From positions 175,711 through 239,710 of the forward strand of contig CAVQEU010000002.1 of NCBI GenBank assembly GCA_963711585.1: a stretch of 64,000 nt of DNA, in the 5' to 3' direction. The stretch is from an uncultured Acidobacteriota bacterium. Its GTDB lineage: Bacteria > Acidobacteriota > Blastocatellia > Pyrinomonadales > Pyrinomonadaceae. Under the pieces are notes generated by a model. The model saw nothing but the letters and a program-made list of their open reading frames with translations. It searched no databases and had not been told where the DNA came from. Shown here one piece after another: positions 1 through 64,000 of the stretch. How positions within the stretch are numbered: position 1 is the first letter of the stretch; each line of letters begins with the position of its first letter. The position numbers were made by a program, and so were the translations under genes.

Positions 1-737
1 ACGCGGACGAATTGAACATGGAGCCGGGCTACCTGACGGGCGTGACGGGCCAGTCGAAAGAGTTGCAGCGCGCGAACAAGTCTTTCATGCTCGCGTTCCT
101 GCTCTCGTTCGTCTTCATGTACCTGATTCTCGCGGCGCAGTTCGAGTCGTTCATACATCCCGTGACTATCTTGCTGACGCTGCCGCTCTCGATTCCGTTC
201 GCGCTGCTCTCGACGCTGATAGCGGGCCAGAGGCTCAACATCTTTTCGGCGCTCGGCATCCTGCTCCTGTTCGGCATCGTCAAGAAGAACGCCATCTTGC
301 AGATTTCCCACACGAACGATTTGCGCGCGCACGGCCTGGAGCGTTACAGCGCCATCCTGCAAGCGAACCGCGACCGCCTGCGGCCCATCCTGATGACGAC
401 CATCGCGCTCGTCGCGGGCATGGTCCCGCTCATAGTGGGCTCCGGGGCGGGCGCGGCGACGAATCGCTCCATCGGCGTGCTCGTGGTCGGCGGGCAGACC
501 CTTTGTCTGCTGCTGACGCTTTTGGCCGTACCCGTCTTCTATTCGCTCTTCGAAGACGCGAAGGAGTCGCGCATCTGGGCTTACGTCGGCGCGGGCATCA
601 ACAACTTCAAGGGAGGACTCGGCCGCCGCCTCTCCGAAATTCGCGCGGGCTTCTCGCGCCGTAAACCCAAAGTCGCCCCGCCCCCCACCGGCACGACCGC
701 AAAGGATAGATATGTTGACCAAGCTTCAGGCGATTAG
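1..737 (+). CDS. efflux RND transporter permease subunit, C-terminal fragment (5' end outside window)
   Basis: The frame is open to the window edge. The polytopic C-terminus ([36 protein letters not shown]) is typical of AcrB/CzcA TM10-12. Stop TAG is at 735-737. Confidence 0.85.
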
Positions 738-40958: not shown

Positions 40959-41252
40959 AGCGGCGACTATTGACATTCATCTTTCAACGGGCATATCGTG
41001 CGCTTGTTCTCAGTCCTCGCATACCTGCTAACGAGAGCCTAAACCCCGACCCTCGTTAGCCTCACGTAACCGCTGATGGTGATAGGCGTCTAATCTGTCA
41101 ACAGGGTGGCAGTCTAATCCTGCAACATGCGCGAAAATGCTAAGAAGCTTGAAGCTGAAGAACGATTAGATGTCTAACCGGGCGTAATTTGTGACGCCTC
41201 TTATTAGGGCGTCTGATTGGCATTGGACTGCTAATTGAAGAGGACGTTAATT

Positions 41253-41645
41253 ATGGAAATTTTCAAATTCATTGGCTCTGGCCTTTTAGTCCTTGGCTCA
41301 ATAGCTGGCTTTTTGATTTTCTCATTCTCCTTTCAAGAATCCCCAAAAAATTCATATGGCGCTCTTTGGCCTCTGTTCATCCTTAGCTTTCTATGTGGAT
41401 GTATACTTTTCTCCTTGGGTTCTAATAAAAACTCTAAGATCAATTTGTTAAAAACGGCGGCTTTTATTCTTTTACTACTTGGCCTCTTATCCGCAGTGAC
41501 CCTCTTCTTGAATGCGTTGGATATAGTCAAGGCCGGAAGCCTAGCGGCTTTATGGGTACTATTCTTACTATGTACAATTTCAGGAATCATAGTGGTGGGA
41601 AGCACAAAAGGCTTAGCGAATGACACCGAAAGATCAAACTATTGA
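41253..41645 (+). CDS. small 4-TM membrane protein, unknown function (low-GC gene)
   Basis: ATG 41253 lies 8 nt after GAAGAGGA. 130 aa with four hydrophobic helices. Markedly AT-rich relative to the window. Confidence 0.5.
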   Translation: MEIFKFIGSGLLVLGSIAGFLIFSFSFQESPKNSYGALWPLFILSFLCGCILFSLGSNKNSKINLLKTAAFILLLLGLLSAVTLFLNALDIVKAGSLAALWVLFLLCTISGIIVVGSTKGLANDTERSNY

Positions 41646-42073
41646 ATGGTTCATTACTTGTTCCCGTCGCCGCCCAACAACCTATCTGAGGTGTGCTAGT
41701 CAAGCGGAACCTCACACTCAAGCCGGATTCTGCGCCGCATAGATGAGTAACGAAGAGCCTTTCTTGCACAGCCCGTCAAGATACTTGACCTCATTCAACC
41801 TGACGCCTCGATAGCTTGCGCTTCGTGGCCTTCCTCTGCCCTGAAGTTCACGTCAATACCTAACTCGTATATGGATTGAATGACGCAGCACAAGTCGGGG
41901 AAGTCGCAGCCTTTAATCACACTGGCCGGTGCGAGTAAGGCGAGGCGGAACTTGTTGGCGTGTTATATACTCCTGACAGCGAAAGCAAGGCCGCCGCGCG
42001 CTTGAAACAAGCGGCTCGCGCGGCGGCCTCTCCGCACAGCCTGTCTCTTCCACGAAAACAGACGCGCGGCCGA

Positions 42074-42107
42074 GGGAGCGCACGTCCCACCCAAGAAGTG
42101 CGCTCCC
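42074..42107 (-). terminator. hairpin 5 nt downstream of the AbrB-like gene
   Basis: gggagcgcac - 14 nt - gtgcgctccc (10-bp perfect stem). A second 13-bp-stem hairpin is at 41988-42029. Confidence 0.4.
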
Positions 42108-42111
42108 ATTC

Positions 42112-42312
42112 TTAGCGGCGCTTACTTCGTTTGGCCGCTTTCTTTTCTGAACGTGAGAGGCGCATCACAACCTCACCTGAAGCAGCCGGCCGAAAAGTCA
42201 GGTAATCGCCCGGCCTCGCCCGCAACTCTTGCAGCAGCGGGCAAGGGACGCGGCCGCGAGTGAGACCAGCATCATTTGTGATTTTGGCCCGGTACTCTTC
42301 TCTTCTTTTCAT
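42112..42312 (-). CDS. small AbrB/SpoVT-like DNA-binding protein (antitoxin-like), tentative
   Basis: ATG 42312 lies 7 nt after AAGGA. 66 aa. ..RVPCPLLQELRARPGDYLTFRP.ASGEVVMRL.. and a basic tail. The fold call is weak. Confidence 0.4.
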   Translation of the reverse strand: MKRREEYRAKITNDAGLTRGRVPCPLLQELRARPGDYLTFRPAASGEVVMRLSRSEKKAAKRSKRR

Positions 42313-42496
42313 GTGAGCGTCCTTCATTGTGTGAAGACGCGCGCTTGTTTGATATGATGCGCGCGGTCTAGTCTTTGAAAACTAAGGCAACGGCAACATG
42401 CGTCGTCTCAAGCCTCAACCTCAAAAGCTGAGTGATGAGCGCCGCCGTTGAGAACAAAAGGAATCTCACGGCGACAAACTTGAGCGGACGGATATT

Positions 42497-42512
42497 ACCC
42501 GTAATTACGGGT
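42497..42512. promoter_or_regulatory. perfect 16-bp palindrome ACCCGTAATTACGGGT, candidate operator of the XRE-like regulator
   Basis: Seen directly in the sequence. It ends 42 nt upstream of ATG 42554. Confidence 0.45.
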
Positions 42513-42553
42513 GAAATCAAGCTGTGCGCTGTCCTGTCGGGAGGTAACTCCTG

Positions 42554-42820
42554 ATGGGCAAGAAAGCGCGTGCGAAGCCGAAACGTCTTGCTGAGAAACT
42601 CGTGCAGATTAGGAATGCTTTGGGCCTGTCTCAGAGCGAGATGTTTAGGCGGTTGGATATTGAGGAGTTTTCCGAAGTCAAAAGGATTTCGGACTATGAG
42701 ACAGGCAAGAGCGAGCCGCCGTTGATCGTTCTCCTGCGGTATGCGCGCGTGGCAGGCGTGCACATGGAAGATATTGTTGATGACGAGATGGACTTGCCAG
42801 GGAAATTGAAAGTGAAGTAG
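42554..42820 (+). CDS. XRE-family helix-turn-helix protein
   Basis: GGGAGG RBS. LVQIRNALGLSQSEMFRRL..ISDYETGKSEP HTH_3 pattern. Confidence 0.7.
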   Translation: MGKKARAKPKRLAEKLVQIRNALGLSQSEMFRRLDIEEFSEVKRISDYETGKSEPPLIVLLRYARVAGVHMEDIVDDEMDLPGKLKVK

Positions 42821-42988
42821 CCGACTTTTTGTGTAAAGCCCTGTCGAGTATTTTTTATTCCCTGCTCTGCCGTAAAGAGGTAAAATCACCGCCCGACAGT
42901 GAGCCGTGACCGCCGGCTTGCGGTCGCGGCCCGACCGTCGGCGTTCCCGTATAACTCCTATCACCTCGTCGGACAGGGAAGGTTTTGT

Positions 42989-45569
<2,581 letters not shown>

Positions 45570-45577
<8 letters not shown>

Positions 45578-50857: not shown

Positions 50858-53764
50858 ATGAAACGTCGCGCGCAGTTCGCTCTGAGTTGGGTCGCGTTGA
50901 TTGCCGTCGTCACCTGCTCCAACGGGCGGGCGATTGTTGTGCGGCCGGCGCAGGATTCGCAGCGCTCGTCGCAGGCGTGGACGCTCGACGAGGCGCTGGC
51001 ACAGTTGACGCTCTTCCCGCGCGACGCTTACCTGCAATACGTCGCGCTGCAATTGGCCCGCCGCGCGGGTCGCTTCGTGGAAGTCTACCAGCGGATTCAG
51101 AGGAACCTTCCCGACGCGGACCAGGCCGCGATCCGCGCCAGCCGTCGCGACAGCGTTGACCTGTTCAGCATCTTCACAGGCGCGCTCGCCGTGCAGGAGA
51201 GCCTGCAACTGGACACCATGAGGACCGTGACGCAAGGGCAGCAATCCGCGCAAACTGCCCCTCAAGACTTTTCCAGGTTTGGAGACCCCGCGCAGCAATC
51301 GTCCGCGGCGAGGCGGCGCGGCTCTCGCTCGCGTGCGCGCCAGCGCGCGGCCGCGCCTCCCGTGGTAATGGCCCCGACTGTGCCTCAAACGCCTGGCTCG
51401 AAGACGCGACGCGCTGACGAGATTGTGCCAGTCGCCAGTCTGAAAGGGCCGACCGTCAAGAGCCACCCGTGGGAGCAGATGCTGGGTGACAGGAAGCCTG
51501 TGATTTCGCCGCTGGCTTACGACGTGCCGGAGGATTTTTATTTGGTGGAGTTTCGCTCCCTGTCCAGGCTGCTGGACGTGATGGACGCGGGCGACCTGTG
51601 GGGCACACACCTCTTCAACCAGGCATTCAACGAGGCGCGCACGCACAACGCCGGCGAACGGGTCAAGCGGCAACTCATCATGCAGGACGAGCCGGCCCTG
51701 CGCCCTTTCTACGACCTCGTCATTCAGGACGTGGCCGTGACGGGGAGCGACCCTTTCGTCCGCGAGGGCAGCGACGTGACAATCATCTTCCGCCTCAAAC
51801 AGCCCGCCATCTTCAAGGCGCGGATGGACGCCTTTCTCGACGAAGCGCAGAAGACGCGCCCGGACGCCAAACGCACCACCGGGAATTACCTCGGCGTTGA
51901 TTACGTCCAACTCCAAACCCCTTTGCGCGACATCAGCGTCATCATTGCGGACCCCGCGCCGGACCTGCACGTGCGCAGCAATTCGCTCGTCGCTTTCCAG
52001 AGAATCATTGAAGCCGTCAAGGGGAAAACGAGTGCGGGGCAGAGCGTGCGACGCTTGGGCGACACGGCGGAGTTCGCTTACATACGCACCCTCATGCCGC
52101 AGCCGGACGAGAACGAGGACGGACTCATCTACATGTCCGACCCGTTCATACGCCGCCTCGTCGGCCCGCAGTTGAAGCTCACGGAGCGCAGGCGCATGCT
52201 CTGCTACAACCACCTGCGCATGATCGGCCACGCGGCGCTGCTCTACCGCACGGAGTTCGGAAAATGGCCCAACTCGCTCGAAGAGTTGGCGCGCACCAAT
52301 ACTTCCCCCGGCCTCTTCGGCAAGGGGGAGTTGTCCTGCCCGTCGGGCGGGCAATATACGCTCGCGGAGGACGGCACGACCGGCGTCTGCTCGCACCACG
52401 GGCACGCGCTCTACCTGACGCCGAACCTCGAAATCCCCGTCACGGAAGTGAGCGGCGCGGAGGCAGACGAGTACGACGCTTTTCTCGAAGAGTACAACCG
52501 ATACTGGCGCGTCTACTTCGACCCCATCGCGCTTCGCCTGCGCGCGACGCCGCGGCAGTACAGGGTCGAGACGCTCATCCTCCCTTTGATAGACAACTCC
52601 ATCTATACGGGGCTCGCGGCGGCGCTCAATGGTCAGCCCGAACCCCTCGACGCCCTGCCCGTGCCCAAACGCAACATCTTCAGTCTGGCGTTAAGACTCA
52701 ACAAAGAGTCTTACGTGAAGACGATGAAAAGCGACGCACAGGATTCTAACGACAAGTTGCTGCGCGAGTTGGGTGTGGGCGACAAGAGTTTGACCGACCT
52801 GAAGGTCAGGGAGTTTCTGTCGAAGGGGTTGGGCAACCAGGCGGGCCTGCACGTTTACGACAGTTACCCGACCTTCGATCTCAGCGTCTCTCAACTGCTC
52901 GGCATGATCGTCTCCGTCGGGGGCATGGGCCGCGCGAACCCGCTCGAAAATGAGTTCCTGTTGATCGGCATGGCGCTCGTTTCGCTCAACAGCCCCGTCT
53001 ACCTGTCGGTCCCCGTCGAGGACGAGCGCGTGGTGGATGACTTTCTGGACCGGTTGGACGTGGCGGCAGCCGCCGGGACGCGCACGCAGGGGCGGCGCGC
53101 CGATTGGTTCAGCTTTAAGTGGGACTACTACAAATTCACTTTGAAGAACGGGCAACCAGCGCGTGCCATCGGCCTCCAGTTCGGGCCAGCCAAGCTGCGT
53201 TTCTTCGCGGCGCGCATAGGGCGCGGGCTCTACGTCGCGAGCAAGCCTTTCATCCTCGAAGACCTCGCGGCAGAGCAGGCGCAAATCCCCGCGGTTGCCA
53301 CCGCCGACAAAGATACCGTGGGCCACGCGATGGCGCGCGTGCGCGCCGAGCATTGGAACGAAGTGCTACCCGACTTTAACTTGAGTTGGGCCGAGAACGA
53401 ACGCGACGCGTGTCTCAACAATCTTGGCCCACTCGCCGGCATCAGCCGCGCGCTGACTGCCCGTCCCCCCGGCCAACAGTCCGGCCCCGGCCCGACCGAA
53501 ATCAACACTGAGGCGCTCGCTCTGGCAGACCGCCTGCACGCGGTCCATTTCTTCTGCCCCGAGGGCGGCTCCTATCTCGCCTCGCCCGACGGCAAGTCCG
53601 TCTCCTGCACCGTCCACGGCACCGCCCTCGCCCCACGCCAACCCTCCTCGCCCTCCGCGACGAGCGCCTCGGGCCGGGCCATGCGCAGTCTCAACGACAT
53701 GACAGCAACGCTCACCTTCCTGCCCGAAGGCTTACGCGCCACCGTCGTCATCAACCGAAAATAG
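50858..53764 (+). CDS. large exported protein, unknown function, with duplicated CPxGGxY..C..HG.AL motif
   Basis: 968 aa with an N-terminal hydrophobic signal/anchor. Composition is ordinary across the whole length. The antisense 546-aa ORF is Arg-rich noise. Confidence 0.75.
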   Translation: MKRRAQFALSWVALIAVVTCSNGRAIVVRPAQDSQRSSQAWTLDEALAQLTLFPRDAYLQYVALQLARRAGRFVEVYQRIQRNLPDADQAAIRASRRDSVDLFSIFTGALAVQESLQLDTMRTVTQGQQSAQTAPQDFSRFGDPAQQSSAARRRGSRSRARQRAAAPPVVMAPTVPQTPGSKTRRADEIVPVASLKGPTVKSHPWEQMLGDRKPVISPLAYDVPEDFYLVEFRSLSRLLDVMDAGDLWGTHLFNQAFNEARTHNAGERVKRQLIMQDEPALRPFYDLVIQDVAVTGSDPFVREGSDVTIIFRLKQPAIFKARMDAFLDEAQKTRPDAKRTTGNYLGVDYVQLQTPLRDISVIIADPAPDLHVRSNSLVAFQRIIEAVKGKTSAGQSVRRLGDTAEFAYIRTLMPQPDENEDGLIYMSDPFIRRLVGPQLKLTERRRMLCYNHLRMIGHAALLYRTEFGKWPNSLEELARTNTSPGLFGKGELSCPSGGQYTLAEDGTTGVCSHHGHALYLTPNLEIPVTEVSGAEADEYDAFLEEYNRYWRVYFDPIALRLRATPRQYRVETLILPLIDNSIYTGLAAALNGQPEPLDALPVPKRNIFSLALRLNKESYVKTMKSDAQDSNDKLLRELGVGDKSLTDLKVREFLSKGLGNQAGLHVYDSYPTFDLSVSQLLGMIVSVGGMGRANPLENEFLLIGMALVSLNSPVYLSVPVEDERVVDDFLDRLDVAAAAGTRTQGRRADWFSFKWDYYKFTLKNGQPARAIGLQFGPAKLRFFAARIGRGLYVASKPFILEDLAAEQAQIPAVATADKDTVGHAMARVRAEHWNEVLPDFNLSWAENERDACLNNLGPLAGISRALTARPPGQQSGPGPTEINTEALALADRLHAVHFFCPEGGSYLASPDGKSVSCTVHGTALAPRQPSSPSATSASGRAMRSLNDMTATLTFLPEGLRATVVINRK

Positions 53765-53899: not shown

Positions 53900-54688
53900 A
53901 TGACATCTAATTCGCGACAACTTGCCATCGTGACGGGCGCGTCGAGCGGCATCGGCTACGAACTCGCCAAGCTCTGCGCCGAAAACGGGTTCGATTTGCT
54001 CATCGCCGCGGACCGGCCCGAGATTAATCAAGCGGCCCAGGATTTCCGGCAACTCGGCGTCGAGGTCGAAGCCGTGGAAGTAGACCTCTCCACCGTCGAG
54101 GGCGTTGACCAGCTTTACAGTGCGGCGAAGGGGCGTCCCGTTGACGCGCTGCTCGCCAACGCAGGCCACGGTCTGGGCCATGGCTTTCTCGATCAGGACT
54201 TCGACGAAGCGCGCCACGTCATTGACACCAACATCACTGGCACAATCTATCTGATACAAAAAGTGGGGCGTGACATGCGCGAGCGCGGCCGGGGCCGGAT
54301 TCTCATCACAGGCTCAATCGCCGGCTTCATGCCCGGCTCGTTCCAGGCCGTCTACAACGGGACCAAGGCGTTCATAGACTCCTTCTCCTTCGCGCTCAGG
54401 AACGAATTGAAAGACACGGATATTACGGTCACCTGCCTGATGCCCGGCGCGACCGAGACAGACTTCTTCGAGCGCGCCGACATGCTCGACACCAAAGTCG
54501 GGCAGGACGAGAAGGACGACCCCGCCAAGGTCGCCCGTGACGGCTTCGACGCGATGATGAACGGCGAGGGCGACGTCGTCAGCGGCTGGAAGAACAAACT
54601 GCAAACCACCCTCGCCAACGTCACACCCGCCGGCGTCCTCGCCGAACAACACCGCAAGATGGCCGAACCCGGTTCCGGCGAGAAGTAG
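53900..54688 (+). CDS. short-chain dehydrogenase/reductase (SDR)
   Basis: TGASSGIG Rossmann motif, NAG, S..Y...K (YNGTK). Confidence 0.9.
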   Translation: MTSNSRQLAIVTGASSGIGYELAKLCAENGFDLLIAADRPEINQAAQDFRQLGVEVEAVEVDLSTVEGVDQLYSAAKGRPVDALLANAGHGLGHGFLDQDFDEARHVIDTNITGTIYLIQKVGRDMRERGRGRILITGSIAGFMPGSFQAVYNGTKAFIDSFSFALRNELKDTDITVTCLMPGATETDFFERADMLDTKVGQDEKDDPAKVARDGFDAMMNGEGDVVSGWKNKLQTTLANVTPAGVLAEQHRKMAEPGSGEK

Positions 54689-54714
54689 CTTGAATCAGCG
54701 ACAGTGCTAAACGA

Positions 54715-54746
54715 GAAGGCCGCCGGGATTGATTCCGGCGGCCTTC
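54715..54746. terminator. bidirectional hairpin between convergent SDR and STAND genes
   Basis: gaaggccgccgg - gattgatt - ccggcggccttc (12-bp perfect stem). Confidence 0.55.
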
Positions 54747-54784
54747 GCTTAGTCCGGCCTCGCACACGGGATAGCATTAGAGGC

Positions 54785-57700
54785 TCACGGCTTTTCGCCA
54801 AGCCGTTCGAGAAGGTCGCGCATTGTTCTTTCATCATTCCCACCTTGCTTGAGCAATTCACGGACGCGTTCCGCCAATTCGGCGTCGCTCCACGGAGTAC
54901 GCAGATAATAGGCAATTACGAGGGCGGCTGGTTGAATAAATAACCCTTCTATCTCGGAATAGCCCTGAATTAAACTCTCAAACTCCTCAGACTTGATGGT
55001 AGAGCAATATCTTCCGCTATCCCTAGACATAAGGCGTTGAGCGAGGATTGTTTGTGCAATCCCGCTCGACGACATTTCATCCTTACTACGAAGAATAGTA
55101 AACATCCGTCCGAGAATATCCGGTTCCGCTGGAGGATCCCAGACATTACTGGTGCCGAGATAAAACAACGCCCAATCAGCCGCGCAGATTTCAGCCGGTG
55201 AATCACTAAAAAGCAATGGTATCACCGCGGCTCCAAGACGCTGGAAAATCTCGGTATATTCTTCGAGAGGTTCTCGGTTTCTCTCAAGGTGAACGTATAG
55301 CTGCACGAAACCAAGCGCCCCTTCGCATCGGGCAATAAGTTCCTGGCTTGACAGGAACTCAAGAAACCGATTGGCTGCGTCTTTGTATTCTTCTCGATTC
55401 TCAGCTTCTATCGTTTGCCACCAAACAGCATGCCGTAGCGCCCATGTTAGTGCATTTAAGTTTCGTGTGGGGCTGAGCCAAGCCTTCCTAGCCTCTTCTC
55501 GTAGAATCGTGCCATAACGCCCTCTGGCAAGCGTTGCTGTGAAAGGGGCAACATCAAAAACATGTCCAACCCGAACCATCTCCTGCATAGCTGCGCGGAT
55601 AGTCTCTGGGCGGGCTGCTACTTCATCAGCCAAACAGTTGCCGAGTACGAGAACAAGCGGATTCCCGCCATAGGCCTCGGAATACTTAACTAGCGCAGTA
55701 ACCCGTTCTGTCAGTCGTTGAACCAGCGCGTCCGTAGCTTTCCCGCCAAGCGCAGCCGCGAGGGGGATGACCTCTCGCCATTCCTCATTTCCAAAATGCG
55801 GGTCAAGCACAGTGACAAAGGTGTCGTCGTCCTTGCGGTCTGGATGCCAGCCTTCGACCATGGCGCGGGCGGTGAGGAATTCCTGGAAGGTGAGGTGGCG
55901 GAATTCGTAGAACTCGACGAGGCGGCTGTCTTCCACGTCGTGGCCGGTCATCATCAAAAGGCTGCTGCGGTCTTCGACGCGGTGGATGAAGTCTTCGACG
56001 CTGCCCTGGACGAAGCCTAGTTCCGTGGGTAGGGCGTCGCGTGCTTCCTGTAGCAGTTTAGCGAGGCGCGGGCGGCTGACCTTTTGCACGCCTTCGAGCA
56101 TCATCGCCGAGGCGACGTAGCAGAGTTGCGGGAGCGCTTCGTCCTCGGGAATCGGGTCGTGCCCCTCCGTGTTCCAGGTCATCAGGAGGACTTCGACGGC
56201 TTTGCCGTAGAGGACGGCGCGGCGCGTTGGGAGCGAGCCGACCCAGCGCTTGACGAGCAGGAGTGTGGTTAGCAGCAGTGGGTTGATGGCTAGACGTTGA
56301 ATCCGGTCGTTGGCGCTGATAGTGCGTGCGAGTTGTTCGGCGTCGGCGCGGACCCTCTCCGTGTCGCCGACGACTTCGCGGTGCCACGCGACGGTCAGCC
56401 GTTCGATGTCTTCGGCGTTGAAAGGAGAGAGCGTGGCGCGCGTGCAGATTGCGGCCAGATGTGCGGCGACGTGGCGAAAGCCCGCCTCGCGCGAAGTGAC
56501 CACGAGCGCCGTGCCAGGATACGCCTGAATGGAAGTGCGTAGCATGCTGACAAAGGCCGCGCGGTCGCCGGGGTCTGAGATTTCGTCGAGCCCGTCAATC
56601 AGCAGGAGGACGCGCCCTTCGAGTAGCACGCGGTCAACGTAAGCGTGAAAAGTCGTGGCGTGCTGGCGCACGGGCTCCCTGGCGGAGAGCGCCGCTATCA
56701 AATCCGCGAATGAGCCGCGCGCCAGCTCGCGCAGCTCGCGGCAGCGAAAGAAGATTGGAAACCAATCTCGCTGCGGCAGGTCATCGGCGGCCCTCTCGCG
56801 CCTGGATGAATCGGCGTAGGCGACGGCGAGGCGCTTGAGCAGCGTTGACTTTCCACCGCCCGGCGCGGCGAGCAGTGCCAGGCGCTCGTGGTCTCTGAGG
56901 ACAGCGCCGACCTGCTGACGCTTCACCTGTTCGTCAATGTCCAGATGCAACGGCACGAACAGGCTTTCGAGTTGAAGCCGGCGAGAGCCTACGTCGCCGT
57001 CCGCCGGCAGCCCGTCGAGGTGAATGTAACCGCACTCCTCCGTGAGGTAGCGCTCGTAAGCCTTAAGAGCAGCGTTCACCTGTTGCTCGTCATCAACGGG
57101 CTGCGGAGGCACGGGGTTGAGACAGGTCAGTTGATGCAACGAGCCGCCGCACACGCGGTCGGCGTCAATAATCTCGTCGGCGACGACGCGCGCGAGCGGC
57201 GTGCCGTCGGCGTGTATCAGCGCGAAGTGCGTGCGCCCTTTGCCCTGCGTGTAGTAGATGGCCCAAATCCAGCCGCGCTCGTGGGCCAGAAGCTCAGCCT
57301 CCGTGTCGAGCGTCAGCGCGTCGTGCGCCGAGCTACAACGCCCTGCCAACTCTGTGGCGCGCTCCCTCTGTATCAGGCTTCGACCCTTGATCAATTCGTC
57401 CACGACTTCTGGGCCGTCCAGGAGAACAAGCTTCGTCGGCCGGCGATTCTTCTCCTGTTCGACGGCGGTTTCTTTAAAGCCTGCGAGGGAGATGAAGTAA
57501 CCCGTCGCGGGAAGCTCACTCGACCCTCGTTCGGCGTCGAGCGCGCCGACAAACTTATTCAGGTCATCGCCCCCGACACGATCGGCCGTGGCCTTACACT
57601 CGCCGATGGCGCGGCGTCGTTCGAGGCGATGGTCGGCGGCGAGGTCAAGCTCGCGTCCGGCTTTATGAATATTGAGGCGAGGCTGTTCGTAACCGAGCGC

Positions 57701-57793
57701 GACGAAGAGATCTGCCATCAGCCGGCCGAAGAGGTCGCCGCGCCGGTTGTTGTCGTTTTCCAGAATGCGGATTTGAGTAGTGTGAGACAACAT
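54785..57793 (-). CDS. STAND NTPase: N-terminal Mrr-like PD-(D/E)xK nuclease + NACHT-type P-loop + C-terminal helical repeats (candidate antiphage NLR-like protein)
   Basis: GRELDLAADH..AIGECKA (D..ExK). Walker A LLAAPGGGKSTLL and Walker B VLLLIDGLDE. VVTSR, and FRHLTFQEFLTA winged-helix motif. ~320-aa alpha-helical tail. Confidence 0.85.
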   Translation of the reverse strand: MLSHTTQIRILENDNNRRGDLFGRLMADLFVALGYEQPRLNIHKAGRELDLAADHRLERRRAIGECKATADRVGGDDLNKFVGALDAERGSSELPATGYFISLAGFKETAVEQEKNRRPTKLVLLDGPEVVDELIKGRSLIQRERATELAGRCSSAHDALTLDTEAELLAHERGWIWAIYYTQGKGRTHFALIHADGTPLARVVADEIIDADRVCGGSLHQLTCLNPVPPQPVDDEQQVNAALKAYERYLTEECGYIHLDGLPADGDVGSRRLQLESLFVPLHLDIDEQVKRQQVGAVLRDHERLALLAAPGGGKSTLLKRLAVAYADSSRRERAADDLPQRDWFPIFFRCRELRELARGSFADLIAALSAREPVRQHATTFHAYVDRVLLEGRVLLLIDGLDEISDPGDRAAFVSMLRTSIQAYPGTALVVTSREAGFRHVAAHLAAICTRATLSPFNAEDIERLTVAWHREVVGDTERVRADAEQLARTISANDRIQRLAINPLLLTTLLLVKRWVGSLPTRRAVLYGKAVEVLLMTWNTEGHDPIPEDEALPQLCYVASAMMLEGVQKVSRPRLAKLLQEARDALPTELGFVQGSVEDFIHRVEDRSSLLMMTGHDVEDSRLVEFYEFRHLTFQEFLTARAMVEGWHPDRKDDDTFVTVLDPHFGNEEWREVIPLAAALGGKATDALVQRLTERVTALVKYSEAYGGNPLVLVLGNCLADEVAARPETIRAAMQEMVRVGHVFDVAPFTATLARGRYGTILREEARKAWLSPTRNLNALTWALRHAVWWQTIEAENREEYKDAANRFLEFLSSQELIARCEGALGFVQLYVHLERNREPLEEYTEIFQRLGAAVIPLLFSDSPAEICAADWALFYLGTSNVWDPPAEPDILGRMFTILRSKDEMSSSGIAQTILAQRLMSRDSGRYCSTIKSEEFESLIQGYSEIEGLFIQPAALVIAYYLRTPWSDAELAERVRELLKQGGNDERTMRDLLERLGEKP

Positions 57794-58020
57794 GCGCCGA
57801 GGATATCACTTCCACCTGACTCAGGCGAGGTTGAGGTAACCCCGTTGTGCCGGCGATTCGTCACTTAACCTACGCATTTTTGACCCGCGTGGGCGCGTGA
57901 AATATTTCGCCCCAAAATCACATAAATATCAGGAAGAGTAATCAGGACGATTGCCTCCGACTGAAGCGCGAAGCCCCGTCGGATTTGAGAATGGCCCACC
58001 ACCCAAAGGAGAAGCGATTT

Positions 58021-59082
58021 ATGAGTCACAGAAGAACTGCCGTGTTCGCCTTCCTGTCTCTGTTCATCCTCGCCGGGGCAGCGCAAGGCCAGATGAAAGC
58101 CCACTTCATCAACGTCGGGCAGGCCGAATCAATCCTGCTGGAGTTTAAGACGGCCGCCGTCTTGATAGACGCCGGAGGTGAAGATACGGGGAACAACCGC
58201 GACAGAGACCGCCTGATAGGCTACCTGAACAGGTTCTTCGACAGGCGCACCGATCTCAATCGGACGCTTCGCAGCATCATCGTCAGTCATCCACACATAG
58301 ACCACACGAGGCTGATCATGAATGTCATGATGAACTTCAGGGTCAGAAGCCTGATTGACGGTGGGGGAAGAAGCGGGAGCGGAATCGGGCCTCTCAATCG
58401 GGCGCGGGCGCGCGCCACAGCGCTCGGCATCCCGCGCATCACAGTGAGGGACTCGGACATCGGCGAGGACGGGTTCACCCCTCAGATATTGGGCCAACTC
58501 CTCAGCTCGGCCTCGAACGTGGACATCAAGTTCCTCAGCGGCGGTTCCAGAAACTGTGAGGACCAAAATAACAACTCGCTAACCGTTCGCGTGGAGCACC
58601 GCGGGAAGAAGTTCCTCTTCACCGGAGACTCGGAAGAGGAGGACGCGGTCTGCGTCGGGGGGCAAATCGGGCGAATGATCGAACGCTTCGACGCTGATGA
58701 GTCCCACGACGGGCTGCTCGACGTGGACGTTTATAAGGTCGGGCATCACGGCTCGCGCAACGCCACCACCGAAGACCTTATGTTAGCCATGTCGCCCACC
58801 ATCTCCGTCATCTCGGCGGGGGACCGCGAGACGCGCGAGCCCGATGAGTTTCACGCCTTCTTTTTCGGGCACCCGAGGGAAGCCGCCGTCAAACTGCTGG
58901 AGGAATTTACGACCGGCGAGCGTCAGCCTCAGGTGACGGTCTACACGATGAGAGCCGTCAGGCGCATCAAGGACAATCGGGTGATGAGACAGGCCGTCTA
59001 CTGCACCTGCTGGGATAACAACGTCGTGGTCGAGGTGGGCGCGGACGGCTCCCTGCGTGACGTGCTGGTTAATCAACAATAA
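58021..59082 (+). CDS. secreted ComEC/Rec2-type metallo-beta-lactamase-fold hydrolase
   Basis: ATG follows AAAGGAGAAG. Signal peptide. FINVGQAESILLE, VLIDAGG, SHPHIDH, KVGHHGS motifs. Confidence 0.8.
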   Translation: MSHRRTAVFAFLSLFILAGAAQGQMKAHFINVGQAESILLEFKTAAVLIDAGGEDTGNNRDRDRLIGYLNRFFDRRTDLNRTLRSIIVSHPHIDHTRLIMNVMMNFRVRSLIDGGGRSGSGIGPLNRARARATALGIPRITVRDSDIGEDGFTPQILGQLLSSASNVDIKFLSGGSRNCEDQNNNSLTVRVEHRGKKFLFTGDSEEEDAVCVGGQIGRMIERFDADESHDGLLDVDVYKVGHHGSRNATTEDLMLAMSPTISVISAGDRETREPDEFHAFFFGHPREAAVKLLEEFTTGERQPQVTVYTMRAVRRIKDNRVMRQAVYCTCWDNNVVVEVGADGSLRDVLVNQQ

Positions 59083-59115
59083 CTCCCGGAAAGACGCGCC
59101 CGTCAGCAGAAAAGA

Positions 59116-59152
59116 TTAAGGCCGCCGACACGGGCGGCCTTAACTCTATTTT
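59116..59152 (+). terminator. rho-independent terminator of the MBL gene
   Basis: ttaaggccgcc - gacacg - ggcggccttaa followed by ctctatttt. Confidence 0.7.
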
Positions 59153-59246
59153 CTCGTCACGCCCGACGCTGTTCGAACTTTCTGTCGCTCCTATGTCTAC
59201 ATTCTTAGCGTTGCGGCCCGCAAGGGAGGCAGAGGCGAACAGCTCT

Positions 59247-59780
59247 TCATTTAGAAGTCGGCCTGCCCTCTGCCGCCTGGTGCTGCGGGGGCGCGAGCAC
59301 TTGCGTGTTCTGAAACGCAGCGATCTTCCACTCGCCGTTGTCTTTCGTCAGCATGAGCGTGAGGATCGCGTTCGTCTCGCGCATCTCCGCGCCTTCCCGG
59401 AACTTGTTGTTCCCGGTGACGTGAACCACGGCCACGTCGGGGCGTAGGAAACGGATTTGTTTGACCGACAGCTTGAGGGTCGAGTCTTTGTAGAACGTGT
59501 CGAAAATCCCCTGGTGCGCTTTGGCTATCGCGTCGCGCCCCTGGATGAACATCCCGTTGATGACTACGTAGTCGGCGTCCGTGGCGAAAGGCTTCGCGAA
59601 GAGAGCCCCGCTTTTCGTGTTCCAGCCCTCCTCCATCTGTCTCACGTTTTCGCGCAGCGCCGCTTCGTCCGCGACGCCGGTCTTTGTCATGCTCGCTTCC
59701 TGAGCCGAGGCGGTGAACGCGCACAGAATCAAGAGCGCGAAGGCGGTTGAAAGTTTCATGCTCGTAGACGGTCTTTTCAT
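59247..59780 (-). CDS. SgcJ/EcaC-family (DUF4440, NTF2-like) exported protein
   Basis: ATG 59780 follows GGAGGAGAAA. Signal peptide. ..LRENVRQMEEGWN..DADYVVINGMFIQGRDAI..FLRPDVAVVHV. Confidence 0.7.
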   Translation of the reverse strand: MKRPSTSMKLSTAFALLILCAFTASAQEASMTKTGVADEAALRENVRQMEEGWNTKSGALFAKPFATDADYVVINGMFIQGRDAIAKAHQGIFDTFYKDSTLKLSVKQIRFLRPDVAVVHVTGNNKFREGAEMRETNAILTLMLTKDNGEWKIAAFQNTQVLAPPQHQAAEGRPTSK

Positions 59781-59975
59781 TTTCTCCTCCGATGAATTTG
59801 GCACGGGCCGGGTCCGCGGACCCGTTTCACATACCGTGCGGTGAATTGATAGCGCCGAGCTGTTGGCTGGCGGCGTTGTCGGCGGGGCTTCCTGTCTTCG
59901 GCCCTCTTGTTGCCGCCCACTTCCGAAAGCGACGAACGAGACGAAAAGCGGCCACCCCTTCGGAAAATTTTTTCT

Positions 59976-59997
59976 TTTGCCCGGCGCGCCGGGCAAA
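59976..59997. promoter_or_regulatory. perfect 22-bp palindrome TTTGCCCGGCG/CGCCGGGCAAA upstream of the ECF sigma gene
   Basis: Seen directly. It lies ~60 nt upstream of ATG 60059, in the divergent intergenic region. Confidence 0.35.
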
Positions 59998-60058
59998 GGT
60001 GTTAGAATTCGCGCCGCTATTCGATGAGGTTGGACCGAACGGACCGAGGGCTCCAAAG

Positions 60059-60661
60059 ATGCAGACCATCTCGCCGCAGGAGGTAACACGGCTGCTCGCG
60101 GACTGGGGCAGGGGCGACAGGTCTGCCCTCGATAAACTCTTCCCGCTCGTCCACGCGGAGCTGCGCCGCATCGCCGGCAGCCAGATGCGCGGCGAGCGGC
60201 CAGGCCACACGCTGCAAGCCACTGCGCTCGTCAACGAGGCTTACCTCAGGCTCGCCGGTCAGGACTCTTTCGAGTGGCACGACCGCGCGCACTTCTTCGC
60301 CGTCTGCGCACAGGTGATGCGCCACATCCTGATAGACCACGCCCGCTCTCACGCACGCGACAAGCGCGGCGGCGGCGCGGTTCACGTCTCGCTCGACGAG
60401 GCGGCGGTCGCGGCCGTGGAAGAGGCCACGGACTTCGCCGCGCTCGACGAGGCTCTGAGCGCGCTCGAAGCCGTTGACCCGCAGAAGGGAAGGATTGTCG
60501 AGCTGCGCTACTTCGGCGGGCTGAGCATGGAGGAGACGGCGGAAGTCTTGAAGATTTCGCCGCGCACGGTGAGACGCGAGTGGCGGCGCGCGAAGGCTTG
60601 GCTCTATCGCATGATGACGGAAGGGGGCGAGGATGAAACCCGACCGCTGGCGGCAGGTTGA
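60059..60661 (+). CDS. ECF-type sigma-70 family factor (kinase-associated type)
   Basis: ..EVTRLLADWGRGDRSALDKLFPLVHAELRRIA..LQATALVNEAYLRL.. and the region-4 HTH EETAEVLKISPRTVRREW. Confidence 0.88.
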   Translation: MQTISPQEVTRLLADWGRGDRSALDKLFPLVHAELRRIAGSQMRGERPGHTLQATALVNEAYLRLAGQDSFEWHDRAHFFAVCAQVMRHILIDHARSHARDKRGGGAVHVSLDEAAVAAVEEATDFAALDEALSALEAVDPQKGRIVELRYFGGLSMEETAEVLKISPRTVRREWRRAKAWLYRMMTEGGEDETRPLAAG

Positions 60662-63470
60662 CGAGCTGTTCGAGGCCGCGCTCAATCGTGCGGAAGGGGA
60701 GCGCGCAAGCTTCCTCGACAAGGCTTGCGGCGGCGACGCGAGCCTGCGGCGTGAGGTCGAGAAGATGCTCGACTTCGACGAGCGGGCCGCCGACTTCATG
60801 GAGGACGATGTCTTCAACCTCGTCACCGTTTTGATGACGGGCGAGGCGCTGCGCCCTCCGAAGGGGCCAACGGCCGCAGCGCAGGAGGGGTCGGCCAAAC
60901 AATCGCGGCCTTCCTTCTCGGCAGACTCGATTGACGACGCCAGGTTCGTGCCGGGCGACGTGCTCTCGGAGCGCTACCGCATCTTCGGCCTGCTCGGCCG
61001 TGGCGGGATGGGCGAGGTTTATCGCGCCGACGACCTCAAGCTCAAACAGGCGGTCGCGCTGAAGTTCCTACCCGAATCTCTGTCGGCGAGCGGCGCGGCG
61101 CTGGCGCGCTTCTACAAAGAGGTCAGCGTCGCAAGGCAGATTTCTCACAGGCACGTCTGCCGCGTCTACGACGTGGGCGAGTACGAGGGGCAACATTTCA
61201 TCTCGATGGAGTTCGTCCGCGGCGAAGAACTCTCGTCGCTCCTCAAGCGCATCGGCCGCCTGCCGCAGGGCAAGGCCGCGGAGGTCACGCGCCAACTCTG
61301 CGCGGGGCTCGCCGCCGTGCACGAGCGGGGCGTGCTCCACCGCGACCTGAAGCCCGCGAACATCATGGTGGACGAGCGGGGCGACGTGCGCATCACGGAC
61401 TTCGGCATCGCCGCGCTCGCCGAAGAGGTGAGCGGGCGCGAGGCGATGGCGGGGACTCCCGCCTACATGTCGCCCGAACAGCTCGAAGGGAGCGAGCTGA
61501 CCGTCAGGAGCGACATCTACAGCCTGGGCCTAGTGCTCTATGAAGTCTTCACGGGCCAGAAGGCTTTCGAGGCGGCGGGCTTGCCGGAGTTGCTGCGCCT
61601 GCGCCGCAGCGACACGACGCCCACCAGCCCCTCGCAACTCGTCCCGGACCTGGACCCGCTCGTCGAGCGAGTCATCCTGCGCTGTCTCGAACGTGACCCG
61701 TCGAAGCGCCCGGCCTCGGCGCTGCAAGTCGCGGCGGCGCTGCCCGGTGGCGACCCGCTCGCCGCTGCGCTGGCGGCCGGCGAGACGCCCTCGCCGGAGA
61801 TGGTCGCCGCCGCGCCGAAAGAAGGCGCGCTCAGGCCCGCGGTCGCCGTCTCGCTCCTTGCCTCCTTCCTCGTTATCGTCGCGGCCCTCTGCTTTCTCTC
61901 GAAAGACGTGGCGCTGTACAGGCAAGTGCCTTTAGACAAATCGCCGGAAGTGCTGCGCGACCGCGCGACCGAAATCATCAAGCGGCTCGGCTACGCTGCG
62001 CCTCCCGCCGACAGCGCTTACGGCATGGACATGGACCGCAGGTATCTGAGCCACGTGCGCGAAACGGACGCTTCGCCCTCGCGCTGGGAGAGATTAAGAG
62101 CGGGGCAGCCCGCCGCCATCTATTTCTGGTACAGGCAGAGTCCCGGCCCATTCGACATCTCGAACGGCGAGGAGGTCGGAGAAAACAGGCCCGCGCCGGA
62201 CTCGCCCGGCATGATTACGCTGACGCTCGACACGCTCGGGCGCTTGCGCTCCTTCCGCGCCGTGCCGCCGCAAAGAGGGTCTGCGCCGCAGGACGCGCCC
62301 GCCCCGGACTGGTCAATTCTGTTCACGGAGAGCGGACTCGACCCGGCGAAGTTCCAACCCACCCCGTCCACCTGGACCCCGCCCCACGAGTCCACGCACC
62401 GCGCCGCCTGGGACGGCCAGTACCCGTCGCGGCCTGAATTCAGGACGCACGTCGAGGCGGCCGTCTACGAGGGCAAGCCGGTCTATTTCGAGTTGATAGA
62501 CGACTGGGATCAGCCGCTCGAACAGCAATCGTCTTCGGTGAGCCCGAAGGAGCGCGCTCTGCTGGTTATTCTGCTCACGGTCTTCATCACCGTGATGGTG
62601 GGCGGCGCGTTCCTGGCCTGGAGAAACTTGCGGCTGGGCCGAGGCGACCGCAAAGGCGCGTTTCGTCTCGCCGCTTTCATGTTCGCGGTCTTCTTTCTAC
62701 GCTGGCTCTTCGCGCAGCACCACGTCCCGACGGAGGACGAGGCGCTGAACTTCATCTCTAACGTGCAGAGAGCGTTGTTCTGGTCGTTCTTCTTCTGGGT
62801 CGTCTATCTCGCGTTCGAGCCTTTTGTCAGGCGGCGCTGGCCCGGCCGCATCATCTCTTGGAGCCGTCTGCTGGCGGGCGGCTGGCGCGACCCGCTCGTC
62901 GGGCGCGACATACTCATCGGCGCGGTCTTCGGCGTCGGCGTCATCCTCTGCAACTTTTTCTTCGCCAGCCTCGTCCCGAAAATCTTCGGCTACCCGACTC
63001 CCATCCCGTGGTTCGACGCCGGGGCCACACAGCTACTCGGGGTGCGCTCGTTCGCTCACGGCGCTCTGCTTCAAATCTTCGCCGCCATTCTTCAATCATT
63101 CATTCTGCTGTTCTTCCTGTTTCTGCTCTACCTCATCCTCCGCAAGGACTGGCTCGCCGCGCTCGTCGTCTGGCTAATCGGTGCGTCCGCCCTGAGTTTG
63201 ACACACGAGACCCGCGCGGGCGTGCTGTTGGCTTCCGTGGCCGCCTTCCTGGTCGTGTGGGCGCTCTATCGTTACGGGTTGCTGTCGCTCATCTCGGCGA
63301 TCTTCTTCCTCCACCTGACCATCTTTTTCCCAATCACGTCGGACTTCACCGCCTGGTACGCGGGCGACTTCGTGCTGGTCCTGGCTCTCTCGGTGGCGGT
63401 CGCCGTTTACGGCTTCTACACGTCGCTCGCAGGGCAGTCGCTCTTCCGCACAGGGCTACTGGACGACTGA
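60633..63470 (+). CDS. Ser/Thr protein kinase with N-terminal sigma-associated segment, one TM helix, an extracytoplasmic region and a polytopic C-terminal membrane domain
   Basis: Overlaps the sigma gene by 29 nt. GRGGMGEVY, AVALK, HRDLKPANIM, DFG, PAYMSPE motifs. Many hydrophobic helices in the last ~300 aa. Confidence 0.9.
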   Translation: MKPDRWRQVDELFEAALNRAEGERASFLDKACGGDASLRREVEKMLDFDERAADFMEDDVFNLVTVLMTGEALRPPKGPTAAAQEGSAKQSRPSFSADSIDDARFVPGDVLSERYRIFGLLGRGGMGEVYRADDLKLKQAVALKFLPESLSASGAALARFYKEVSVARQISHRHVCRVYDVGEYEGQHFISMEFVRGEELSSLLKRIGRLPQGKAAEVTRQLCAGLAAVHERGVLHRDLKPANIMVDERGDVRITDFGIAALAEEVSGREAMAGTPAYMSPEQLEGSELTVRSDIYSLGLVLYEVFTGQKAFEAAGLPELLRLRRSDTTPTSPSQLVPDLDPLVERVILRCLERDPSKRPASALQVAAALPGGDPLAAALAAGETPSPEMVAAAPKEGALRPAVAVSLLASFLVIVAALCFLSKDVALYRQVPLDKSPEVLRDRATEIIKRLGYAAPPADSAYGMDMDRRYLSHVRETDASPSRWERLRAGQPAAIYFWYRQSPGPFDISNGEEVGENRPAPDSPGMITLTLDTLGRLRSFRAVPPQRGSAPQDAPAPDWSILFTESGLDPAKFQPTPSTWTPPHESTHRAAWDGQYPSRPEFRTHVEAAVYEGKPVYFELIDDWDQPLEQQSSSVSPKERALLVILLTVFITVMVGGAFLAWRNLRLGRGDRKGAFRLAAFMFAVFFLRWLFAQHHVPTEDEALNFISNVQRALFWSFFFWVVYLAFEPFVRRRWPGRIISWSRLLAGGWRDPLVGRDILIGAVFGVGVILCNFFFASLVPKIFGYPTPIPWFDAGATQLLGVRSFAHGALLQIFAAILQSFILLFFLFLLYLILRKDWLAALVVWLIGASALSLTHETRAGVLLASVAAFLVVWALYRYGLLSLISAIFFLHLTIFFPITSDFTAWYAGDFVLVLALSVAVAVYGFYTSLAGQSLFRTGLLDD

Positions 63471-63527
63471 GTAAGGGGAGGGGCGAACGCCGGGCGCACG
63501 GGGCGGTGCGGTCAGGCCGATTAAGTA

Positions 63528-63556
63528 TTGACCGGCGGCCGACATAGACGTAGAAT
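63528..63556 (+). promoter_or_regulatory. candidate sigma70-type promoter (TTGACC-N17-TAGAAT)
   Basis: Seen directly, ~135 nt upstream of ATG 63690. Confidence 0.4.
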
Positions 63557-63689
63557 CGCCCGGCGAACGAATCAACAGACTGGCCTCAGAGTCACCTCGC
63601 ATCTCCCCGTCCAGCCTTCCGCGATTCCTACGCGGCCTCGAACCCGACTTGGAGCCCTTTAGCTATCTCACACAAAGCGCGGGGACAAT

Positions 63690-64000
63690 ATGTCTGTAAT
63701 TTCAATAAGTGCGAAAGACGCGAAGCTTCACCAGATCGTGCGCACGCTCCTTCCAGAGTACACAATCGGCGGCGAGGGACGGCCCGACCTGCTCATCGCC
63801 GAACTGTCGGGCGAGCGCGACTGCACCGGGGCGAAGGCGATTCGGAAACTCCGGGAAACGTACCCGACGCTTCACGTCGTGGTCATCTCGGGCGGGAGTT
63901 CCCCGGCCGTGACGCAGCAGGCCGTGCGCCTGCGCGTGGATGATTTCTTCACGCTGCCGGCCGAGAGCGCGGAATTCAGAGACTCTGTAACGGCGCTCGT
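63690..64000 (+). CDS. receiver-like domain protein, 5' partial (runs off window end)
   Basis: The frame from ATG 63690 has no stop up to 64000 and is absent from the ORF track. PDLLIAELS..LHVVVISGG..VDDFFTLP resembles a degenerate REC fold. Confidence 0.45.
   Translation, partial: MSVISISAKDAKLHQIVRTLLPEYTIGGEGRPDLLIAELSGERDCTGAKAIRKLRETYPTLHVVVISGGSSPAVTQQAVRLRVDDFFTLPAESAEFRDSVTAL

Follow-up and report, generated by a model that had tools for sequence, protein, structure and literature searches.

Does a large gene that stands alone in the genome of an uncultured acidobacterium encode an immune receptor against phages? The question is raised by a stretch of 64,000 nucleotides from a Pyrinomonadaceae bacterium (Acidobacteriota; contig CAVQEU010000002.1 of assembly GCA_963711585.1, positions 175,711–239,710 of the forward strand), hereafter called the window, in which positions 54785–57793 of the minus strand (stop codon 54785–54787) hold an uninterrupted open reading frame (ORF) of 1002 codons with an ATG start. 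The encoded protein of 1002 amino acids (aa), the whole of which is spanned by its full-length homologues (100%), has four parts: an Mrr-type nuclease, an alpha/beta linker, a NACHT nucleoside triphosphatase (NTPase), and an armadillo/HEAT-like predicted sensor. Bacterial proteins related to the nucleotide-binding leucine-rich-repeat receptors (NLRs) are an established class of anti-phage receptors, and the first-pass annotation of the window had proposed the gene as a candidate single-gene defence system of this kind, a proposal supported by the motifs, the fold models, the patchy distribution of relatives and their unrelated gene neighbourhoods. We consider it probable that the gene encodes a stand-alone, NLR-related immune protein of the NACHT clade of signal transduction ATPases with numerous domains (STAND), belonging to an Mrr_cat+NACHT family and acting against phages by an abortive nuclease.

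The predicted effector is the N-terminal nuclease domain (aa 1–135; 57389–57793, minus strand), to which the Pfam family Mrr_cat was matched over aa 22–132 with 35.0 bits against a cut-off of 21 (E = 1.7e-8). The motifs quoted for this domain in the first-pass annotation were located at aa 46–55 (GRELDLAADH), aa 60–68 (RRAIGECKA) and aa 81–85 (FVGAL), and the order and spacing of these and of the NTPase motifs along the protein are as given there. They include the catalytic motif D50 … E65-C66-K67 (D-x14-ExK; 57593–57646, minus strand), which was defined with the structure model and three alignments, comprising 20 full-length homologues (A1), 46 more distant ones (A2) and N-terminal regions (A5). 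A1 and A5 show no variation at D50, E65 or K67, which are also present in at least 90% of the rows of A2, and the family alignments in which the catalytic and NTPase motifs are conserved extend down to about 35% identity. As the full-length AlphaFold2 model was poor in the Mrr domain (predicted local distance difference test, pLDDT, <50), it was replaced there by a model of aa 1–290 built on the more diverse A5, which reached a pLDDT of 88 and a predicted template modelling score of 0.79, with a pLDDT of >94 over aa 20–230. This model shows an alpha-beta-beta-beta-alpha-beta core in which strand 2 holds D50 and strand 3 holds E65 and K67, and its Foldseek matches in the PDB, namely MspJI (the best, E = 2.5e-4), AF1548/1y88, EndoMS/NucS, Cap4, FokI, LmuA, and HamA, are all PD-(D/E)xK nucleases, several of them defence effectors. 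The restriction-endonuclease fold expected of the N-terminus is thus present in a confident model, and with a hidden Markov model score above cut-off, the D…(D/E)xK motif and the fold all found, the protein can be assigned to the Mrr-type PD-(D/E)xK nucleases on sequence and predicted structure.

Between the nuclease and the NTPase lies a conserved alpha/beta linker domain (aa 136–235; 57089–57388, minus strand), modelled with a pLDDT of 94–98 as two helices, a three-stranded antiparallel meander and one helix. Its residues G174, W177, H194 and G197 are invariant in A5; neither a covering Pfam family nor an assignable Foldseek match was found for aa 136–235. As relatives that bear a SIR2 domain match the protein only from aa 231–243 onward, the linker goes with the Mrr nuclease and not with the NTPase.

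The NACHT module, which consists of an N-terminal helix followed by nucleotide-binding, helical and winged-helix domains (aa 236–690; 55724–57088, minus strand), is the best conserved part of the protein, with a column entropy of 0.3–1.0 bit. The Pfam NACHT family matches aa 310–473 with 63.5 bits against a cut-off of 26.7 (E = 2.9e-17). The Walker A P-loop APGGGKST (aa 310–317; 56843–56866), in which the annotated GGGKS stands at aa 312–316, has G312, G314, K315, S316 and T317 invariant in A1; the Walker B motif LLLIDGLDE (aa 396–404; 56582–56608) carries the NACHT signature D[GAS]hDE, with D400, G401, L402, D403 and E404 invariant in both A1 and A2; and the sensor-1 arginine motif VVTSR (aa 431–435; 56489–56503) has T433, S434 and R435 invariant in A1, all three lying on the minus strand. 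The helix that had been described as typical of NACHT, FRHLTFQEFLTA, was found at aa 631–642 (55868–55903, minus strand) as a winged-helix motif (FRHLTFQEF), in which F631 to E638 are invariant in A1. Its invariant H633, the column of which corresponds to H691 of alignment A2, is one which we take to be the counterpart of the conserved winged-helix histidine of NLRs. In Foldseek searches with the NACHT module, the top ten matches were all NACHT structures of NLRP3 (E = 4e-8 to 2e-5), followed by ORC/Cdc6, though the confidence of the model is moderate (pLDDT 40–88, lowest at aa 518–552 and 633–685). The D[GAS]hDE form of Walker B is diagnostic of NACHT (Kibby et al., bioRxiv 10.1101/2022.07.19.500537). 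With Walker A, this Walker B signature, the Pfam score and the fold all in place, the protein can be assigned to the NACHT-clade STAND NTPases.

The remainder of the protein (aa 691–1002; 54788–55723, minus strand) is a hypervariable, all-helical, armadillo/HEAT-like repeat domain, coded by a segment of low GC content at third codon positions (GC3), and is the predicted sensor. The helical repeats described earlier for the C-terminus are borne out by the AlphaFold2 model, in which the tail from about aa 690 is made up entirely of helices with a pLDDT of about 88. The accompanying statement that the sensor resembles nothing that can be named did not hold, as Foldseek matched aa 691–1002 to armadillo/HEAT solenoids, namely designed armadillo proteins and importin-alpha (E = 1e-4 to 1e-3); the family profile also gave a weak match to Vac8.

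The nuclease, linker and NACHT module (aa 1–690), referred to here as the chassis, and the sensor differ markedly in conservation. In a set of 114 family proteins, pairwise identity averages 76% over aa 1–690 against 37% over aa 731–1002, column entropy steps up at about aa 690 from 0.3–1.0 to 2.0–2.5 bits, and pairs with an 85–92% identical chassis have sensors ranging from 32% to 79% identity. The bNACHT01 clade has likewise been described as combining a conserved switch and a C-terminus that diversifies rapidly (Kibby et al., bioRxiv 10.1101/2022.07.19.500537). The same boundary is visible in nucleotide composition, with a GC content of 0.48–0.54 at 54785–55750 against 0.62–0.66 over the remaining gene, and a GC3 of 0.458 for codons 691–1002 against 0.755 for codons 1–690, at equal GC content of second codon positions; the adjacent genes of the window, with a GC3 of 0.78–0.85, are near the chassis value. 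The gene had been described as lying in a compositionally atypical patch, which is true of its sensor-coding 3′ third and not of the rest. Recent recombination at this locus was considered as the origin of the low-GC 3′ third and rejected, because a fall in GC3 of about 0.3, located between codons 640 and 700, is seen not only in the window gene but also at the same place in its four nearest relatives (related loci L004, L009, L013 and L014), and GC3 is lower in the sensor than in the chassis at 56 of 62 loci. The GC3 step is therefore a family trait and not the scar of a recent event at the window locus. Strong discordance between the N- and C-terminal parts, which would indicate sensor exchange, was seen in only 3 of the 114 proteins. 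It is conceivable, if rather unlikely, that these proteins are receptors with a frozen chassis and a free sensor, whose C-terminal armadillo-like module behaves in evolution, and at times in recombination, as a cassette apart, with its own nucleotide signature. Were this so, the GC3 step would mark a distinct mode of sensor turnover, by exchange within a shared pool of lower-GC alleles or by a locally raised mutation rate, that goes beyond ordinary fast divergence, and the family could be a natural system in which to study the re-programming of NLR specificity.

Among catalogued systems, the closest in architecture are the REase+NACHT or Mrr_cat+NACHT proteins listed with the same boundaries in clade 2 of Kibby et al. 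(bioRxiv 10.1101/2022.07.19.500537), with entries in Table S1 of that preprint from Hymenobacter sp. HMF4947 (WP_157567192.1), Thalassomonas (WP_044834066.1), Planctomycetes (KAF0246040.1) and Kibdelosporangium (WP_125728006.1). The window protein shares the domain order and the boundaries of these proteins, with REase at 17–133 and NACHT from about 240–289 to about 737; for the HMF4947 entry, Mrr_cat is listed at 18..133 and NACHT at 240..737 (Kibby et al., bioRxiv 10.1101/2022.07.19.500537). The genome of HMF4947 encodes a protein 43–45% identical to ours over aa 1–774, very probably the listed one, which differs in its C-terminal region, where no similarity to the window sensor was found at E 1e-10. 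Identity is 35% to bNACHT37 over the stretch of the pre-NACHT helix and P-loop (E = 3e-12) and 38% to an Agrobacterium SIR2-NACHT protein over aa 243–685. Its sequence thus places the protein in the catalogued, experimentally uncharacterised Mrr_cat+NACHT branch of clade 2, an assignment based on pairwise identities to members, and the architecture is not new. Of the other proteins that Kibby et al. assign to clade 2, bNACHT20 (calcineurin-like + NACHT + SidE) and bNACHT37 (SIR2_2 + NACHT + HEPN) have other effectors and C-termini, and bNACHT20, the only clade 2 member with reported anti-phage activity (PMC13581612), aligns with the window protein over 109 aa at 25%.

The experimentally validated proteins that offer a functional parallel are more distant. 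The E. coli proteins bNACHT25 and bNACHT32 (REase + NACHT + NCH1, clade 6) sense phage through the host chaperone DnaJ, and their defence is abolished by the substitution D48A, at the equivalent of D50 (PMC12169576). They resemble the window protein in combining an N-terminal PD-(D/E)xK nuclease, NACHT and a helical C-terminus in one polypeptide, with D48 placed like D50. However, at 752 aa they are shorter, without the 100-aa linker and with NCH1 instead of an armadillo-like tail, and they belong to clade 6 instead of clade 2. The NACHT modules of bNACHT25 and the window protein share 21% identity (pairwise E = 5e-6, with an hhalign probability of 49%), and the C-terminal region of bNACHT25 could not be aligned with that of the window protein by BLASTP or hhalign. 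With neither a close NACHT relation nor an NCH1 tail detected, the window protein lies outside the bNACHT25/32 family. The reference proteins bNACHT25 and bNACHT20 were recovered full-length from E. coli genomes; in these, in prophage-like surroundings, the bNACHT20 gene lies between holin and antiterminator Q genes, and the bNACHT25 gene follows genes of the ydaT/ydaV type and precedes an IS3 element (L007:4318–7470 and L006:3501–5759). Mrr-like nucleases occur also in Avs proteins, among them Avs4. Purified Avs8A (PD-lambda-4), which combines Mrr and STAND parts, cleaves DNA in the presence of phage capsid protein, Mg2+ and ATP (PMC12236752), and by analogy its course of phage protein binding by the sensor, NTP-dependent assembly and switching on of an Mrr-family DNase may apply here, although the NTPases of Avs8A and Avs4 fall outside the NACHT clade and Avs8 is a two-gene operon. 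The sole matches in PADLOC v2 were two weak ones to PDC-S02 on the Mrr part (E = 1.6e-3 and 9e-3), the NCBIfam model of EruA (NF058535) gave 34.5 bits against a cut-off of 1000, and searches of the whole protein in PADLOC, NCBIfam and PDB sequences gave no usable family assignment. The architecture had been likened to that of NACHT/Avs-type defence proteins, and this likeness holds for the bacterial NACHT proteins of Kibby's clade 2 and not for the Avs families of PADLOC. Among animal NLRs, NLRP3 is the best structural match of the NACHT module, and NLRC4/NAIP gave a weak profile match at the P-loop; these receptors use leucine-rich-repeat sensors and death-fold adaptors, in contrast to the armadillo-like sensor and enzymatic nuclease of the window protein.

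Relatives of the gene are numerous. More than 1,400 were scored in a collection clustered at 90%, the best 120 of which are nearly all full-length and 60–79% identical, and a library of 50% representatives yielded 677 cluster representatives at E ≤ 1e-30 and 14,916 at E ≤ 1e-3. Among 185,579 species, each represented by one genome, at least 232 relatives were found, a minimum given that the scan relied on two fixed peptide patterns. The relatives are spread patchily over at least 12 bacterial phyla (Acidobacteriota, Planctomycetota, Verrucomicrobiota, Chlorobi/Bacteroidota, Myxococcota, Gemmatimonadota, Methylomirabilota, Desulfobacterota, Actinomycetota, Pseudomonadota, Armatimonadota and Nitrospinota) and archaea. 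Three metagenome-assembled genomes (MAGs) binned as archaeal, of ANME-1, Bathyarchaeota and Methanosarcinales (L041, L048 and L050), carry full-length relatives with a 44–53% identical chassis. Where the host is rich in GC, the gene often has a lower GC content than its flanks (0.54/0.46 against 0.69 at L036; 0.50 against 0.65 at L089). Some relatives have further domains before the Mrr unit, comprising SIR2_2, TIR_2, a calcineurin-like phosphoesterase and a ParA-like ATPase, and one has a C-terminal LON substrate-binding domain (P0126, P0254, P0250, P0156, P0060 and P0180). The members with an added effector before the Mrr unit suggest dual-effector proteins, and in some relatives SIR2 stands in place of the Mrr unit, such additions and replacements being a minority. 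That TIR, SIR2 and calcineurin-like domains are added, or that SIR2 replaces the Mrr unit, supports the role of the N-terminus as an effector. Matches starting near aa 290 were also considered as effector swaps and rejected, since alignment A2 shows the Mrr domain in those proteins too; the matches are split there because of insertions.

The copies at about 6 of 80 loci (~7%) are disrupted, by insertion sequence (IS) elements, deletion or frameshifts. In two independent relatives, an IS with a DDE transposase (L031:12149–13045 and L046:12199–14001) sits at the junction of chassis and sensor, at about aa 683–706, and this near-identical place of insertion could mean that the lower-GC segment is a preferred target. 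In the closest genome (L028, the Pyrinomonadaceae MAG SMAG_U8543), whose DNA is 95–96% identical to and collinear with window positions 56067–64000, 1136 bp are absent (window 54931–56066, codons ~577–954), with an overlap of about 12 bp at the junction and the remainder out of frame; either the gene has decayed naturally or the gap is an artefact of assembly. Interrupted reading frames were also found at L040, L075 and L077.

The neighbourhoods of the relatives are unrelated to each other. When the two nearest ORFs on each side were compared at 32 loci (126 ORFs), 153 Pfam families were matched, none of them in more than two ORFs, and there is thus no conserved partner gene. Conservation in synteny as a core gene of the lineage, which would have spoken against a defence role, was therefore not what we found, the at least 232 relatives being scattered and their surroundings unrelated. 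Defence-island context occurs at some related loci, but only occasionally and not as a rule. At L004, the neighbours are an Eco57I-type restriction-modification gene, an integrase and an SNF2 helicase, and at L003 they are IS605, a DDE transposase, HicB and NotI restriction-modification; other relatives have PD-Lambda-5 A and B, AbiEi/AbiEii, methyltransferases, mad3 or MzaA nearby. The SIR2-NACHT relative on an Agrobacterium plasmid adjoins McrBC, IS3 and a nucleotidyltransferase-HEPN gene. In its full-length form, the gene was not found on any plasmid. In a Blastocatellia genome, a second STAND gene (L001:6175–9063), coding for a 962-aa NACHT-pentapeptide-repeat protein, lies divergently beside the homologue. 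Taken together, the context, the GC contrast with the flanks and the disrupted copies make the gene an accessory, horizontally mobile and dispensable single-gene unit. The hypervariable sensor, the scattered relatives, the GC contrast, the absence of a partner, the defence and mobile genes at some loci, the inactivated copies and the added or swapped effectors fit an immune gene.

To this anatomy, with its intact motifs, its two folds, its hypervariable predicted sensor and its mobile, dispensable and partner-less distribution, a mode of action can be added by analogy with bNACHT25/32, Avs8A and Avs4, from which we infer the trigger, oligomerisation, DNase activity and anti-phage phenotype. 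We propose the following scenario. In the resting state, the protein would be a nucleotide-bound, auto-inhibited monomer. The C-terminal armadillo/HEAT-like solenoid may bind a phage protein, or a host protein perturbed by infection, and this binding would free the NACHT module for NTP-dependent oligomerisation. The oligomer would join the N-terminal Mrr-type PD-(D/E)xK domains into an active nuclease, which may degrade DNA without sequence specificity and so abort the infection.

Several observations weigh against this scenario. In the window, the gene is surrounded by ordinary genes of metabolism and regulation, and the majority of related loci lie outside defence islands. For a defence gene, a chassis that is 76% identical between phyla is unusually conserved. 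The Mrr_cat+NACHT members of clade 2 are catalogue entries, and for the clade 2 proteins bNACHT27, 30 and 37 no phage is listed in the preprint table (Kibby et al., bioRxiv 10.1101/2022.07.19.500537). Furthermore, the validated proteins are only distantly similar (bNACHT25 at 21%, bNACHT20 at 25% over 109 aa), and no Avs1-5 or PD-Lambda-4 (Avs8) model of PADLOC v2 was matched. Part of this evidence would also suit a STAND signalling protein outside immunity, whose NACHT switch responds to an endogenous ligand or to stress, with the Mrr-like domain used for DNA binding, regulation or repair and not for killing the cell: only 198 of 589 STAND clades are associated with defence, with non-defence clades interspersed (Lee et al. 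2026), housekeeping genes surround the gene in the window and at most related loci, and the chassis is very strongly conserved. However, conservation of the full D…ExK triad throughout the family, the hypervariable tail, the patchy horizontal spread, the copies disrupted by IS elements and deletions, the relatives that add TIR, SIR2 or calcineurin-like effectors, and the lack of a conserved regulated partner or operon all speak against such a protein, which we hold to be improbable.

The nuclease domain itself invites comparison with NTP-dependent type IV/Mrr restriction enzymes, which would recognise modified or foreign DNA directly, with the NTPase working on DNA and the tail serving in DNA recognition or regulation, in that its best structural match, MspJI, is a modification-dependent restriction enzyme, its Pfam family is Mrr_cat, and one relative adjoins McrBC. 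Yet the NTPase is a NACHT/STAND switch nearest to NLRP3, and neither a translocase nor a GTPase of the McrB type, no domain that reads DNA modification was found in the protein, and the tail is a solenoid of the armadillo/HEAT type. Such solenoids usually bind proteins. Moreover, the validated Mrr-STAND proteins are triggered by proteins (PMC12169576, PMC12236752), and a restriction enzyme of this sort is a highly improbable explanation of the gene. The horizontal and patchy distribution, with IS elements, integrases and a conjugative plasmid near relatives, would also agree with a gene for conflict with plasmids, other mobile elements or competing cells, or with a selfish, addiction-like module. 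This possibility overlaps with the proposed mechanism and differs in the trigger alone; with no recurring antitoxin-like partner, no full-length form on a plasmid, and closest characterised analogues that act against phages, we regard it as quite unlikely. An abortive anti-phage receptor is thus the interpretation that we prefer.

As such, the gene adds an environmental member from Pyrinomonadaceae (Acidobacteriota) to a branch so far known from catalogue entries, and brings no new principle. It is moderately unusual in the very high conservation of its chassis across phyla and into archaea, in its confidently folded linker without an assigned relative and in the family-wide GC3 step. If it has the predicted activity, validated NACHT immunity would extend to soil phyla and, through the 44–53% identical relatives, to archaea, and the conserved chassis with a compact variable sensor of 310 aa would make the protein a good subject for finding the trigger.

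The immediate surroundings of the gene are as the first-pass annotation had described them, with a convergent short-chain dehydrogenase gene at 53900–54688 (plus strand) and a divergent gene for a hydrolase of the metallo-beta-lactamase (MBL) fold at 57985–59082 (plus strand). The two convergent stop codons are separated by a GC-rich hairpin (54715–54746), a candidate bidirectional terminator, with a 12-bp stem when read from the sequence and 14 paired bp and a 4-nt loop in the computed fold. The fold of positions 54705–54760 has −31.8 kcal/mol (z = −3.96), which none of 200 shuffles equalled. The hairpin is not followed by a T-run and was for this reason missed by the consensus terminator scan; it is consistent with an independent transcription unit for the NACHT gene. 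The divergent intergenic region between the NACHT gene and the MBL hydrolase (57794–58020) is the presumed promoter region, in which a scan for the sigma-70 consensus gave no match. A tRNA scan revealed nothing relevant to the NACHT gene.

The MBL hydrolase had been called secreted, and a signal peptide, MSHRRTAVFAFLSLFILAGAAQG, is indeed visible. The enzyme matches the PADLOC MBL models of LmuA (2.7e-13), DRT and Avs1a and is ComEC-like according to one source. Its pairing with the NACHT gene recurs at L009 (6929–8119) and L028 (5784–6878), the relative at L009 being 78% identical while its other flanks differ. A role as functional partner was nevertheless rejected, in view of the signal peptide, the lack of such a hydrolase beside 78 other related loci and the occurrence of a 79% identical MBL protein without any NACHT gene.

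Elsewhere in the window, an ORF of 968 aa at 50858–53764 (plus strand) begins with a signal-like sequence and gave no hits against Pfam, PADLOC or PDB sequences. The deepest GC trough (41001–43000; 0.47–0.55 against about 0.64) contains only short ORFs without clear families and lies directly upstream of a gene for a PAS-GAF hybrid histidine kinase (42899–45577). On the far side of the MBL hydrolase, an extracytoplasmic function (ECF) sigma factor gene (59792–60661, plus strand; Sigma70_ECF, PF07638) overlaps by 29 bases with a gene for a 945-aa serine/threonine kinase (60633–63470, plus strand).

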